NCBI GenBank assembly: GCA_022565235.1
Contig: JADFJW010000002.1
Coordinates: forward strand, 1 to 42,105
From: Nanobdellota archaeon
GTDB lineage: Archaea > Nanobdellota > Nanobdellia > Woesearchaeales > GW2011-AR4
DNA: 42,105 bases
Reading direction: 5' to 3'
Shown here: positions 4,696 through 19,991 of the stretch, one piece after another
Position numbering within the stretch: position 1 is the stretch's first letter
How the letters are laid out: every line of letters starts with the position of its first letter
Notes under the pieces: generated by a model
Databases searched by the model: none
The model's input: the letters and a program-made list of their open reading frames with translations, nothing else
What the model was told of the DNA's origin: nothing
Position numbers and translations under genes: made by a program

Positions 4696-5679
4696 ATGGG
4701 AATGATAATAGACTATAATAGGGAAGGTGAACTGTTAAAAGAATTAGAAGGTATAGTAGATGCCGAAGAACGAAAATCAAGATTATTGGAAGTCATTGAA
4801 GGTATTGAAGGTATACTTGTACCTCAATATGCAGATGGTCTGAAGGATGTAAAAAAGCTTGAACATAGGCTGACTCAAAGAACAAGTTTCACTAGAGAAG
4901 CATTAGAAATATTTTCAAGAGGGGTACAAGAACCATTAAAGCGCGGATTAGATGATTTAAAGGGTTATAATAGAGATACCGTAAATGGAGTATTTATTGC
5001 CCTTTATGAACACTTAGTTAATGAAATTAAAACAAGACAATTAGATTACATTGTAGACCATAACAGGGATGACGATACGAATGCGGAACTAGCAGAACTC
5101 ATGGATCAAATAAATATTTATCATGCGTATTCTACATGGGTAAATCAGAATGAAAGGTCTATTGAAGGATTAGATCAACAGGAAATGGAAAAAGCTTCTA
5201 AGCAATTCAGGGATTTAAAAAAGTCTGCTGTGGGTTTTATGAGTGCATTTAGAAGTCTTCTGTGGCAGGACAATAACATTGTATCTATATATGCTTTGTT
5301 TGATGGCAGTAAAACGTTGGAAAATTACGACGCTTCTGTAGAAGTATTAGATGGAACTATTACTGATTGTGCAATGATAGTTTCGAGCTCCTCCAACATA
5401 AGAGGTAATGGTTGGTCTGCGGTAATAAAACTAGCTAGTACTATTCGACTAAATGCAGAATATTATTTTTTGAAAATGGGTTATGATGTATATCATGATA
5501 ATAATATGAGGGCCAATTTGCAGGATCCAGAACAGTTCAAGCAGGATTTGATGAGCAGGGCGAGATCTATGAGATATTTGCATGTTACAAATATAATTGG
5601 CGGTCCTTCAGCGCTGCAATTATCGACTAAAGAGCGAACGTTTTATGAAGTAGAATTAAATCCTAAACCATCGAAGTAA
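4696..5679 (+). CDS. Hypothetical protein (327 aa), orphan by eye
   Basis: Long ORF preceded by the SD-like GAGGGGAG about 10 nt upstream. Its composition is less Lys/Ile-rich than its neighbours. No motif recognised. Confidence 0.6.
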   Translation: MGMIIDYNREGELLKELEGIVDAEERKSRLLEVIEGIEGILVPQYADGLKDVKKLEHRLTQRTSFTREALEIFSRGVQEPLKRGLDDLKGYNRDTVNGVFIALYEHLVNEIKTRQLDYIVDHNRDDDTNAELAELMDQINIYHAYSTWVNQNERSIEGLDQQEMEKASKQFRDLKKSAVGFMSAFRSLLWQDNNIVSIYALFDGSKTLENYDASVEVLDGTITDCAMIVSSSSNIRGNGWSAVIKLASTIRLNAEYYFLKMGYDVYHDNNMRANLQDPEQFKQDLMSRARSMRYLHVTNIIGGPSALQLSTKERTFYEVELNPKPSK

Positions 5680-8386: not shown

Positions 8387-9508
8387 ATGTATGATATCGT
8401 TAATGAAGGGTCTGCAGTCATAAAAATAAAGAAAGCAGATAAAATATCCAAAGAGATGGATGTTTTCTATAATCCAGTAATGAGGATTAATAGGGATATT
8501 TCTATTTTGTTGTTAAACGCTATTGATAATGAAAATATGCAGATTGCCCTGCCTTTGGCCGGTTCTGGCATCAGGGGAATGAGGTTTCTGAAAGAGTTAA
8601 GGAAAAATAAGGTTAAGAGTGTGAGTTTCAATGATTACAGTGCAAAAGCAGTTGCATCAATGAAAAATAGTTTAAAGCTCAATAAATTAAAAAATAAAAA
8701 AAAAATCCAGATTCATAATGAAGATGCCAATCTGTTCTTATTAAACTCCAAGGGTTTTGACTATATAGATGTTGACCCTTTCGGAAGCTCAAATCCTTAC
8801 TTAGATGCTGCAGTCAAAAGAATTTCTAGAAACGGAATTTTGGCTGTAACCAATACGGATACTGCTGCTTTGACTGGAACTTATCCAGAGGCCTGTGCCA
8901 GGAAATACTGGAGTTCTCCTAAAAGGGATTACATGATGCATGAAATTGGATTAAGAATATTGATCAGAAAGGTACAATTAACAGGAATGCAGTATGAAAA
9001 GGCTTTGTTTCCCATATTTTCGTATTTTAAGGACCATTATTTCAGAATATTTTTTCAATGCATCAAAGGGAAGAAACTATGTGATGGAATTGCTTTGGAA
9101 CATGGTATGTTTAATAATGCGGGGCCGTTGTGGTTGGGTAATTTATTTGATAGTAAGTTAGTCAATAAGATGCATAGTGCACTAAAAAATTACAATGAAA
9201 AAAATCCAATTAAAAATAATAATGTCATGAAAATCGAAGATTTTCAGGACACCGGAAATCGTAGATTTCCGCGTGAACTAATTAAATTCTTAAAAACTAT
9301 TAAAGATGAATCAAAAATTGATGTTGTTGGGTTTTATGATCTTCACGATATTACTGGAAAGAAAAAAATGAGGACGATGGACACAAAAATCAATATTATC
9401 AAAAAAATAAATAAGAAAGGGTTTAAGGCTTCAAATACTCATTTTTCCGGGACGGGAGTTAGGTCTGATATCCCTTATAATAAATTATTGCCGTTATTGA
9501 AAGAATAA
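8387..9508 (+). CDS. trm1: tRNA (guanine26-N2)-dimethyltransferase Trm1
   Basis: VFYNPVMRINRDISILLL is the hallmark Trm1 N-terminal motif. An SAM-binding region LAGSGIRGMRF is also present. Confidence 0.9.
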   Translation: MYDIVNEGSAVIKIKKADKISKEMDVFYNPVMRINRDISILLLNAIDNENMQIALPLAGSGIRGMRFLKELRKNKVKSVSFNDYSAKAVASMKNSLKLNKLKNKKKIQIHNEDANLFLLNSKGFDYIDVDPFGSSNPYLDAAVKRISRNGILAVTNTDTAALTGTYPEACARKYWSSPKRDYMMHEIGLRILIRKVQLTGMQYEKALFPIFSYFKDHYFRIFFQCIKGKKLCDGIALEHGMFNNAGPLWLGNLFDSKLVNKMHSALKNYNEKNPIKNNNVMKIEDFQDTGNRRFPRELIKFLKTIKDESKIDVVGFYDLHDITGKKKMRTMDTKINIIKKINKKGFKASNTHFSGTGVRSDIPYNKLLPLLKE

Positions 9509-19144: not shown

Positions 19145-19161
19145 CTTATACTACTAAAAAC

Positions 19162-19339
19162 GATGTTGGTGCGAAACTCTGTGGATTGCGAGCGACCCGC
19201 AGTCGCTCGTCGTGTTTACGGCTTGCGCGAGGCCTTAGCATACCTCTCAACTTCGCTTCGCTCAGGTCGAACAGCACAATCCTACGGAACTATCTACATG
19301 GGCAAAATACGCACAAGCACCGACTTTCGCACCAACCTC
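19162..19339. mobile_element. MITE-like non-autonomous element (alternative reading: GC-rich structured RNA gene)
   Basis: The TIR GATGTTGGTGCGAAA (19162-19176) pairs with TTTCGCACCAACCTC (19325-19339) at 14 of 15 positions. It is directly flanked by the perfect 9-bp direct repeat ACTAAAAAC (19153-19161 and 19340-19348). G+C is about 54% by hand count. An internal hairpin CGAGCGAC-ccgca-GTCGCTCG lies at 19189-19209. Confidence 0.5.
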
Positions 19340-19367
19340 ACTAAAAACAAAAGCTTTTTATGCTATC

Positions 19368-19991
19368 TTGTTGTTTTTTTGGCTTATGAACAAAAAGGAG
19401 TTTAAAAAACTACTCAAAAAAACTTGGTATTTTATCTGGGAAGACAACAGTATATGGAGCTGGATTGTAAATATAATACTAGCGTTCATCCTCATCAAAT
19501 TTGCAGTATATCCTGGATTGGGCCTTATATTAAGCACAAGCCATCCAGTTGTTGCGGTTGTATCAAGCAGCATGGAGCATGATATGGATTTTGAGGCATG
19601 GTGGGAAGAAAATAAGGAGTGGTATATGGAAAATGGAATCAACAAAGAGGATTTTGAAACATCTTCATTTAGAAACGGCTTTAACAAGGGAGATATCATG
19701 GTTTTAGTCGGAAAAGATGCAGAAAATATTGAGGTTGGAAATGTGATAGTTTTCAGAAGCAGTAAAAGGGATCCCATAATACACCGGGTTGTGAAAAAAT
19801 TTGAGGATGATAAGGGTATTTATTTCCAGACAAAAGGAGACAATAATGAGGATTCGATAAAAAACGATGCGCTAGACGAGACAAACATAAGGGAAGATGT
19901 TATCATAGGGAAGGCTGTTTTAAGGGTACCTTTTTTGGGTTATATAAAGATATGGTTTGTTGAGGCCTTGAAATTTTTAGACCTGGCATGA
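19368..19991 (+). CDS. Signal peptidase I, archaeal/Sec11 type
   Basis: VAVVSSSMEH is the Ser box, followed by GDIMVLVG, IIHRVV (His box) and TKGDNN. The likely start is the ATG at 19386 (MNKKEF...). Confidence 0.8.
   Translation: MLFFWLMNKKEFKKLLKKTWYFIWEDNSIWSWIVNIILAFILIKFAVYPGLGLILSTSHPVVAVVSSSMEHDMDFEAWWEENKEWYMENGINKEDFETSSFRNGFNKGDIMVLVGKDAENIEVGNVIVFRSSKRDPIIHRVVKKFEDDKGIYFQTKGDNNEDSIKNDALDETNIREDVIIGKAVLRVPFLGYIKIWFVEALKFLDLA

Follow-up and report, generated by a model that had tools for sequence, protein, structure and literature searches.

A probable miniature inverted-repeat transposable element family of DPANN archaea and its placement at the edge of predicted promoters

The DNA analyzed in this study (referred to as the window) is a stretch of 42,105 nucleotides, positions 1 to 42,105 of contig JADFJW010000002.1 of a Nanobdellota archaeon of the Woesearchaeales (NCBI GenBank assembly GCA_022565235.1), and our subject is a G+C-rich element of 178 bp that lies in it between two divergent genes and that we interpret as a miniature inverted-repeat transposable element (MITE). 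An earlier note, made from the letters of the sequence, had drawn attention to this element, and its description was confirmed at every position that it named: the coordinates of the element, the inverted repeats at its ends, the direct repeats that bracket it, the elevated G+C content and the internal hairpin. The neighbours that it had proposed were likewise upheld, the NMD3-domain open reading frame (ORF) by Pfam and signal peptidase I by the names of its homologues. The outermost 15 nucleotides on the left, GATGTTGGTGCGAAA (19162-19176), differ from the reverse complement of TTTCGCACCAACCTC (19325-19339) only at position 3 (T versus G), a match of 14/15, and the 9-bp direct repeats stand flush with these inverted repeats, with zero spacer. 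Pairing of the ends in fact extends to about 17-18 bp (GATGTTGGTGCGAAACTC / GACTTTCGCACCAACCTC), and a second, inner inverted repeat then follows. The element has a G+C content of 54.5%, versus 34.5% for the window as a whole, and is the strongest G+C island of the window (maximum over 150 nt of 0.56, relative to a mean of 0.345 and a standard deviation of 0.05). The perfect 8-bp hairpin within it, CGAGCGAC/GTCGCTCG, has a loop of 5 nt. The positions of these and the other features of the locus are collected in Table 1.

Table 1. Features of the element and of its surroundings in the window, in order of position.
Feature	Position	Strand	Basis and remarks
Gene for an NMD3-domain protein, 140 amino acids	18722-19144	-	Pfam PF04981; start codon now 17 nt from the element
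Left 9-bp target-site duplication, ACTAAAAAC	19153-19161		Sequence; single copy in the empty relatives L058 and L003
Whole element (probable MITE, subtype B), 178 bp	19162-19339	+	Family consensus is oriented as the plus strand
Left terminal inverted repeat, GATGTTGGTGCGAAACTC, the 5' arm of helix P1	19162-19179		Family consensus GAGGTTGGTGCGAAA(N)TC
G+C-rich hairpin module, about 45 nt	19176-19221		Contains the 8-bp hairpin 19189-19209 as its tip; optional
P2, 5' arm, GCTTGCGCG	19221-19229		One C/A mismatch to its partner; a T in strain L001 restores the pair
Asymmetric interior	19230-19309		Conserved blocks GAGGCCTTAGCAT, CTCAACTTCGC, GCTCAGGTCG, CAATCCT..GGA and GGCAA (alignments)
P2, 3' arm, CGCACAAGC	19310-19318		Sequence
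Right terminal inverted repeat, GACTTTCGCACCAACCTC, the 3' arm of P1	19322-19339		Sequence
Right 9-bp target-site duplication, ACTAAAAAC	19340-19348		Sequence, empty-site comparison
Putative host promoter: BRE-like AAAAGC, then TATA-like TTTTTATG	19349-19362	+	Sequence only; about 24-31 nt before the signal-peptidase ATG
Signal peptidase I gene	19386-19991	+	Names of homologues at JGI and NCBI; ATG at 19386

In order to judge how readily such an arrangement could arise by chance, simulated windows were generated with a first-order Markov model. Perfect 9-bp direct repeats spaced 60-400 bp apart are numerous in the window (354, versus about 181 in the simulations), but a 9-bp repeat flush with an inverted repeat of at least 14/15 occurs in it once and was found in 0 of 200 simulations; with the threshold relaxed to at least 11/15, the simulated mean was 0.08 per window. 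Neither a repeat search nor the covariance model described below detected a further copy of the family within the 42-kb window.

Comparison with relatives (loci from other genomes and metagenomes carry L numbers here) revealed both filled and empty alleles of the site. An exact-identity look-up of the NMD3-like protein, which is identical between filled and empty strains, returned four short contigs: L001 is filled, two contigs break inside the element and L003 is empty. The flank of L003 is 99.7% identical to the window and has a single GTTTTTAGT with no element. The assemblies of L001 and of the window recovered the element independently of each other. The orthologous loci of more distant relatives were reached via homologues of the signal peptidase. 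L058, in which that protein is 92% identical, reads CCATCTTATACT-ACTAAAAAC-AAAAGCTTTTTATGCTATCTTG, which is the window minus the element and one 9-mer and thus an exact empty site (also written CTTATACT-ACTAAAAAC-AAAAGCTTTTTATG). The site is also empty in lineages whose signal peptidases are 81% (L059), 77% (L060-63) and 74% (L064) identical, the intergenic regions being 52-107 bp long. Given that the nearest relatives are empty, the empty state is ancestral and the copy in the window a lineage-specific insertion that duplicated 9 bp. The earlier note had suggested looking for an empty site with a single ACTAAAAAC in the orthologous intergenic region of relatives, and this is what these loci contain.

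Several further observations were made at the same locus. The contigs L002, L003 and L004 all terminate in or at the element, and contig breaks there in several assemblies are as expected from a repeat or from a presence/absence variant. The start of L002 (L002:1-37), compared with window positions 19256-19300, is a variant with a central hairpin 10 nt longer and a cluster of substitutions, in a strain that is otherwise 99.9% identical to the window; it reflects either allelic exchange with another copy or a chimeric, repeat-induced contig end. In L035 the NMD3-like gene and the MITE are separated by a gene for a 331-amino-acid NAD-binding dehydrogenase (Pfam NAD_binding_2; L035:2326-3321). 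This gene is missing from the window and from the other relatives, and represents a gene gain directly adjoining the element.

The ends of the element are not confined to this locus. One genome per prokaryotic species was scanned with the pattern TTGGTGCGAAA-N133-163-TTTCGCACCAA, which gave 21 matches versus about 1 expected by chance (our estimate). Sixteen of these are in metagenome-assembled genomes (MAGs) of Woesearchaeota/Nanoarchaeota, so that the ends GAGGTTGGTGCGAAA recur at 16 genome loci in these groups; three MAGs carry two or three copies each, on different contigs, and many of the copies have 9-bp duplications of their own (e.g., GTTTTTACA, GATTTGTCA and ATTTGTTCC). The copies fall into subtypes by their interior, with only the ends in common, and the window element belongs to what we term subtype B. 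A 26-nt pattern taken from the right end of this subtype matched 33 times on 32 metagenome contigs. A covariance model was then built from 11 short copies and searched against the window and the related loci that had been collected. It identified 29 distinct subtype-B copies of 145-248 bp, including three on contig L046 and two each on L035 and L052, and scored the window element at 92.5 bits (E 1e-22), whose closest paralogue among the loci is L036:10075-10261. The core GGTTGGTGCGAAA is common to all subtypes, and GGTTGGTGCGAAA / TTTCGCACCAACC is present at the 16 genome loci and in the 29 distinct subtype-B copies.

The copies have lengths of 145, 152-156, 178-191, 216-220 and 248 bp; as these do not differ by multiples of three, the element is taken to be non-coding, and all 29 subtype-B copies are situated between ORFs. 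Eight of them have perfect (9/9) duplications, every one different (e.g., TTTTGAACC, TATATTTGC, TCTTTCACT, TTCTAATAC and AGATATAAG), five more have duplications of 8/9, and perfect 9-bp duplications were also found in other subtypes (L005, L006 and L025). The family is therefore small and non-coding, has conserved inverted ends, is flanked by a duplication of fixed length and variable sequence, exists in many copies and is polymorphic for insertion, which are the properties by which a MITE is recognized. The earlier note had offered this reading alongside that of a structural RNA gene, and the empty orthologous sites and the many copies elsewhere, each with its own 9-bp duplication, bear it out. 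On L046 (Ga0187827_10008893) the three copies, at 1560-1755 (with a degenerate left end), 4972-5125 and 8390-8570, lie within 7 kb, and about 3.2 kb with genes for epimerase-like proteins and a radical-SAM-like protein is enclosed by two of them, in a layout like that of a composite transposon. The 248-bp copies L029:1014-1261 and L031:1731-1978, at different loci of one metagenome, have in common an additional AT-rich stretch of about 95 nt that contains two hairpins, from which it follows that the family can carry additional cargo.

Every host whose identity could be checked is a member of the DPANN archaea. Four MAG records, which account for five loci, are titled 'uncultured Methanosarcinales archaeon' (CAYYLB01, CAZTBE01, CAZFPU01 and CAYIKL01; loci L008, L011, L017, L021 and L023) and could have indicated a wider host range. 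For CAYYLB01 (L008 and L017), the record tested, the closest named relatives of the threonyl-tRNA synthetase are all Woesearchaeota/Nanoarchaeia; the Methanosarcinales label of that one record is therefore wrong, and for it a host beyond DPANN was rejected. The bacterial matches to the end pattern (L013, L015, L016, L020 and L022) were also rejected as unrelated, as they are without the GG prefix, the interior and the duplications. Among them, L020 and L022 (an Olsenella MAG), L015 (Arsenophonus) and L016 (Melainabacteria) had matched through different inverted repeats of their own, and the Olsenella contigs contain tandem CCTTGGTGCGAAA / TTTCGCACCAAGG arms that may represent a separate bacterial repeat family. 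The element gave no blastn match in plasmid and phage collections, and the end-pair pattern, with two gap ranges, had no match in viral contigs.

The subtype-B copies are built on a common plan. In the 145-nt core the ends form helix P1 of about 17 bp, inside which are the inner inverted repeat P2 (GTGCTTGTGCG/CGCACAAGCAC), an asymmetric interior and a variable central hairpin. Across copies, 3 of the 11 pairs of P2 have changes on both sides that keep the pair. The central hairpin of the window element is the minimal form, GC-TTCG-C (about 19254-19262); in other copies it is longer, with complementary changes, and its stem changes on both sides while staying paired (GCAATAC/GTATTGC, GCAAAAC/GTTTTGC, GCAAGAC/GTCTTGC and GCAACAC/GTGTTGC). 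The G+C-rich hairpin module of the window element is missing from the 145-nt core copies and is present in the same place in L036 and L052:1521-1736, while in L011, L026, L035 and L039 a related module is part of the central hairpin, and in L040 and L047 it is inverted and situated in the 3' part. The module, which measures about 40-45 nt in the longer copies (GTGAAyTGCGAGCGA...TCGCTCG..TTCAC), thus occupies three positions, in both orientations, in copies that are otherwise collinear, and in this it looks like a nested or shuffled sub-element. Motifs like TGCGAGCG recur in other subtypes.

The island is structured: the predicted minimum free energy of the window element is -68 kcal/mol, and compared with shuffled sequences the fold is more stable on the plus strand (z -5.7) and on the minus strand (z -3.4) alike. 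In the alignment fitted to the model, 95% of the cells pair. Six pairs have pair-keeping changes on both sides, versus 1.0 +/- 0.9 in shuffles and 1-3 in slid controls, a difference that is modest evidence given that the structure was used to fit the alignment and that an exact right end was the criterion for choosing the copies; a single transposase that has to fit both ends would also be expected to produce paired changes in the terminal repeats. Changes on one side of a pair were examined for a preference of strand: in P1 and P2 there are 9 G.U versus 21 A.C (read on the plus strand), and in two short helices 34 versus 2, the latter driven by one conserved pair, so that no consistent strand signal emerges. 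At the Rfam 15 gathering scores there were 0 matches in the window and in 18 further loci with family members; at E<=10 the 300-nt region of the element matched only STnc240, with a chance-level score of 19.4 bits (the gathering score is 55), and no tRNA was detected by ARAGORN. RNase P RNA, signal recognition particle RNA, 5S rRNA, an intron-containing tRNA and an H/ACA or C/D small RNA (sRNA), candidates suggested by motifs spotted by eye (GCGAAAGUCGG on the minus strand and CAGGUCGAAC..AGCA on the plus strand), were rejected on the same searches, which gave no Rfam match to them at E<=10 and no ARAGORN tRNA. The conserved interior belongs to the architecture of the element and is probably needed for binding of the transposase or for formation of a hairpin; the comparison of copies makes a role at the level of RNA or of a hairpin possible as well.

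We assign a probability of about 0.9 to the element being a MITE, i.e., a non-coding, non-autonomous DNA transposon of a family of Woesearchaeota/Nanoarchaeota (DPANN). In the mechanism that we envisage, a transposase acting in trans would bind the conserved ends of about 18 bp, GAGGTTGGTGCGAAAnTC, excise or copy the element and integrate it via a 9-bp staggered cut, and repair of that cut would yield the flanking ACTAAAAAC duplication. Conserved ends together with a 9-bp duplication of constant length and variable sequence are the mark of staggered-cut integration, typical of DDE transposases, and DDE-type chemistry would be expected here. A number of observations weigh against this interpretation, one of them being that the enzyme was not encountered. 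No transposase was recognized by Pfam among the 28 ORFs of at least 200 amino acids in the window, which belong to housekeeping families or to none; in about 440 kb of related loci, no ends paired at 0.3-4 kb enclosed an ORF of transposase size, the yield of that scan being two MITEs that bracket sugar-modification genes in L046, plus noise; and an all-against-all comparison of 316 ORFs gave syntenic orthologues only, with no multi-copy protein. Likewise, the 33 subtype-B right-end matches are all MITEs or contig ends, with no autonomous element among them. Thus, of the things that the earlier note had thought worth seeking, further copies with the same ends were found, but an insertion sequence (IS) with matching ends was not found in the loci scanned, and as a consequence the enzyme, its family and the DDE chemistry are deduced from the ends and the 9-bp duplication. 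The better-than-shuffled folding and the excess of paired changes also count on this side, as together they make a structural constraint beyond transposase binding possible. Finally, precise excision or recombination could have produced the empty allele of L003, in which the first 60 nt, at a contig end, are far more diverged than the remainder.

The stability of the fold speaks for a functional structured RNA, whether an sRNA gene or a cis-regulatory leader of a flanking gene, in which the inverted ends would be a closing helix, the G+C richness a result of selection for a stable RNA in an AT-rich genome, and any mobility secondary or ancient. Such an RNA would account for the strongest G+C island of the window, for interior blocks conserved between hosts whose genes are only 70-75% identical, for a central hairpin lengthened by complementary changes and for the six pairs that change on both sides; one helix also contains a conserved U.G pair, which would be standard on the plus strand but not on the minus strand, and in the filled allele the TATA box that the two genes appear to share would drive minus-strand transcription into the element. 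We nevertheless consider this explanation, which was the alternative put forward in the earlier note, to be improbable. In addition to the lack of an Rfam family or tRNA match, near-identical strains differ in whether they have the element, four related lineages lack it at this locus, dozens of copies stand at unrelated loci with duplications of their own and in mixed orientation (17 versus 12, see below), the 9 G.U versus 21 A.C changes in the two long helices give no consistent indication of a strand, and the paired changes are also expected from the fit to a transposase. Differing 9-bp duplications around copies at unrelated loci are the finding that the earlier note itself had said would speak against an RNA gene. 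Still less probable is a palindromic repeat that spread by another route, such as a repetitive extragenic palindrome (REP) or REPIN mobilized by a tyrosine HUH transposase, or a scar of recombination or integration whose 9-bp repeats would be what is left of attachment sites. A structured, intergenic, multi-copy repeat for which no DDE transposase was found would suit this explanation, but target duplications are not made by REPINs with their REP-associated tyrosine transposases (RAYTs) or by IS200/605-type elements, and a site-specific recombinase uses the same attachment sequence each time, whereas here the duplication has a constant length of 9 bp, varies in sequence from copy to copy and is identical to the 9-mer that empty sites have once; no RAYT-like gene was seen among the window ORFs tested. 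The abundance of 9-bp repeats in AT-rich DNA and the contigs that break inside the element would be compatible with a chance coincidence of repeats or an assembly artefact, which we rejected as having a negligible probability in view of the 0 of 200 simulated windows and the family members in dozens of independent assemblies.

The MITE interpretation can be set against systems that are already well described. Prokaryotic MITEs include the Correia elements of Neisseria and SM1-SM4 of Sulfolobus, and the present family resembles such elements in being 145-248 bp long, non-coding, multi-copy, intergenic and strain-variable, with inverted ends, a duplication of fixed length and a stable fold. It differs from other MITEs in having no known parent IS, in its asymmetric conserved interior with movable hairpin modules and in its fixed offset from BRE/TATA sequences (BRE, transcription factor B recognition element), discussed below. 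In the literature searched, the ends GAGGTTGGTGCGAAA gave only unrelated primer matches and no archaeal or bacterial MITEs were reported at a fixed BRE/TATA offset; the kind of element is well known, and the family itself appears to be undescribed. The earlier note had thought that either of its readings would be unusual in a reduced archaeal genome, which was an overstatement: in an automated archaeal census, a Woesearchaea genome is among the most MITE-dense archaeal genomes (PMC11602168), and MITEs in DPANN are therefore not unprecedented.

As to the source of the transposase, the comparison of ends suggests that the IS5 family could be considered, as a lead and not an assignment. The verified IS5 terminus GGAAGGTGCGAATAAG has the octamer GGTGCGAA and a G-rich start in common with the MITE end, but the octamer is shifted by 2 nt from the tip, the probability of such a likeness by chance is a few per cent (an estimate that allows for the choice among IS families), and no IS5-like transposase was found near any MITE copy. 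Duplications of 9 bp are made by the IS903 group of the IS5 family, while IS5 itself makes 4-bp duplications, and IS256, IS4/IS10/IS50 and IS1 also make duplications of 8-9 bp. G+C-rich islands are known to mark non-coding RNA genes in the AT-rich genomes of archaeal hyperthermophiles. The element is similar to those in that its G+C content rises sharply above that of an AT-rich archaeal genome and its predicted fold is significantly stable, but it is unlike them in being multi-copy, mobile, strain-variable, flanked by target duplications and without an Rfam family; a G+C island is therefore no indicator of an RNA gene in these genomes.

An unexpected property of the family is where its members lie relative to genes. 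The 23 subtype-B copies for which both neighbours were called are located between divergent (12) or tandem (11) genes and never between convergent ones (0), and in at least 10 independent flanks an outward-reading start codon is 44-47 nt from the end of the element. When 82 flanks of all subtypes were aligned at the element ends, a common layout was apparent: next to the 9-bp duplication there is an A-rich hexamer, in which A makes up 51-59% at offsets 10-13, and beyond it a T/A box. TATA-like hexamers start at offsets 15 to 19 in 12, 18, 23, 22 and 10 cases, respectively (85/190), versus 2-4 at other offsets. Read outward, this layout agrees with the BRE/TATA arrangement of leaderless archaeal genes. 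Of 39 independent insertions, 33 have, on one side or both, a TATA-like box that begins at offset 13-18, versus 6-18 for other 6-nt offset windows. The placement holds across subtypes (examples are the window at 19340-19362, L055, L030 and L052, and L005 on both sides) and is kept in all 11 copies with perfect duplications. The typical target geometry is therefore a 9-bp target that ends about 6 nt upstream of the TATA-like box and about 46 nt before the start codon. The orientation of the element relative to the promoter is mixed, the promoter being faced by 17 right ends and 12 left ends in subtype B. As a null model, the elements were removed in silico and any 9-bp target was allowed outside ORFs of at least 90 amino acids and outside the 37 nt upstream of start codons; it predicts 24-28%, compared with the observed 33/39 (binomial P about 1e-13), although it treats all stretches without an ORF of that size as free and so overestimates the neutral space.

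The same position has apparently been used more than once. L035 is syntenic with the window (about 75% nucleotide identity, with signal peptidases 70% identical), and its copy at L035:3336-3516 stands at the same position upstream of the signal-peptidase promoter as the window copy, with the same right flank, ACTAAAAACAAAAGCTTTTTAT. Since the two copies differ in the layout of their modules and four closer lineages are empty, the simplest reading is that the insertions in the window and in L035 were independent. Similarly, L035:5632-5813 and L060:4373-4581 are at the same position upstream of a thymidylate-kinase promoter (..TTTTCC-AyAAAkTTAATAAAT..), in opposite orientations. By their sequences, both site pairs look like independent insertions at the same nucleotide in different lineages.

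Two explanations for this placement have to be weighed, and in such compact genomes selection certainly contributes to it. In one of them the MITE would have no target preference, insertion being essentially random or biased to AT-rich DNA, and insertions elsewhere would have been purged because they destroy a gene or a promoter. This is credible in that intergenic regions are tiny (47-53 bp at the two recurrent sites), that tandem gene pairs often leave only 0-28 nt free on the side without the promoter and that the duplicated 9-mers are AT-rich in AT-rich hosts. We nonetheless find it rather doubtful as a full account. The null model yields 24-28% and not 85%, even though ORFs and the 37 nt before start codons are already barred to insertion in it, and the peak of offsets is sharp (about +/-2 nt), without the one-sided tail of a minimum-distance constraint. 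The copies in L040, L043, L047 and L034 keep the fixed offset despite hundreds of ORF-free nucleotides on the other side, and in hosts of 55-61% G+C, in which the targets are not AT-rich, the TATA-like sequence is at the same offset (L008, GTGCCAGGC-AACAAC-TATTTAAGG; L017, GATCCGACC-AAAAGA-CTTATATAG). Furthermore, the insertion in the window itself damages the promoter arrangement of the NMD3-like gene, so avoidance of harm is not absolute. Overall we lean, with some reservation, towards active selection of promoter-edge DNA by the integration machinery over selection acting by itself. The integration machinery would then pick such DNA through the geometry of the promoter or through bound TATA-binding protein (TBP) and transcription factor B (TFB). 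The fuller proposal, that the transposition system reads archaeal promoters, with the promoter-side edge of the 9-bp stagger at the upstream border of the BRE, about 6 nt before the TATA box, in either orientation and by DNA geometry or tethering to TBP/TFB, is one that we put forward tentatively and at slightly less than even odds. Weighing on the other side, besides the generous neutral space of the null model, are that the TATA and BRE sequences were assigned by sequence alone and that selection, in genomes as compact as these, could be responsible for part of the placement at promoter edges.

At the locus in the window, the start codon of the signal-peptidase gene is 46 nt past the end of the element, which is the modal spacing in the family, and the sequence ..TAAAAACAAAAGCTTTTTAT.. 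is kept in all relatives at the promoter of this gene. In the empty alleles there is one palindromic-like box, CATAAAAAGC/GCTTTTTATG, about 23-31 nt upstream of both start codons, and this is the sole TATA-like element at promoter distance from either gene; read on the opposite strand as CATAAAAAG, it is the only one at such a distance from the NMD3-like ATG. The divergent genes thus seem to share a quasi-palindromic TATA region, AAAAGCTTTTTAT, which is conserved in the lineages of L058, L059, L060 and L064 (proteins 74-92% identical) and which resembles a compact bidirectional promoter within a 53-bp intergenic region. The insertion falls between the shared box and the NMD3-like ATG, and just upstream of the BRE/TATA as seen from the side of the signal peptidase. 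It would accordingly have spared the predicted signal-peptidase promoter and parted the NMD3-like gene from the predicted TATA box that the two genes share. As no TATA-like sequence at a suitable distance was found inside the left end of the element, the NMD3-like gene is either transcribed through the element or weakened: we infer that it may have acquired a structured leader of about 190 nt, ending in a T5 run, or may be down-regulated.

Elements that target promoters are familiar from eukaryotes, namely Ty3 and Ty1, which insert at genes of RNA polymerase III via TFIIIB, TRE5-A of Dictyostelium, which inserts about 48 bp upstream of tRNA genes, Tf1 and mPing of rice. The archaeal family is like these in its narrow, fixed distance from an initiation site defined by a TBP-containing complex, in the reuse of sites and in sparing the promoter. 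It is unlike them in that they are mostly retrotransposons with known tethering proteins, whereas this is a DNA-type archaeal MITE for which tethering to TBP/TFB is hypothetical.

For annotation, these results mean that an RNA gene should not be assumed wherever an AT-rich DPANN genome shows a sharp G+C island closed by a helix. For the biology of the hosts, they mean that very reduced genomes of Woesearchaeota still host an active or recently active population of transposons, which differs between near-identical strains, and the filled and empty alleles at a rewired bidirectional promoter provide natural test material for effects on the NMD3-like gene. The placement at promoter edges is the part worth pursuing. 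If insertion is indeed guided by promoters, the family would be a compact system in which to learn how a transposase senses the archaeal pre-initiation complex, and each copy would mark a promoter in organisms for which there are no transcript data, offering a sequence-based promoter map of uncultured archaea. If this is true, the family would be a prokaryotic DNA-transposon counterpart of the targeting of TBP-containing complexes by Ty3 or TRE5-A, and it would explain how a mobile element thrives in DPANN genomes that have almost no spare DNA.

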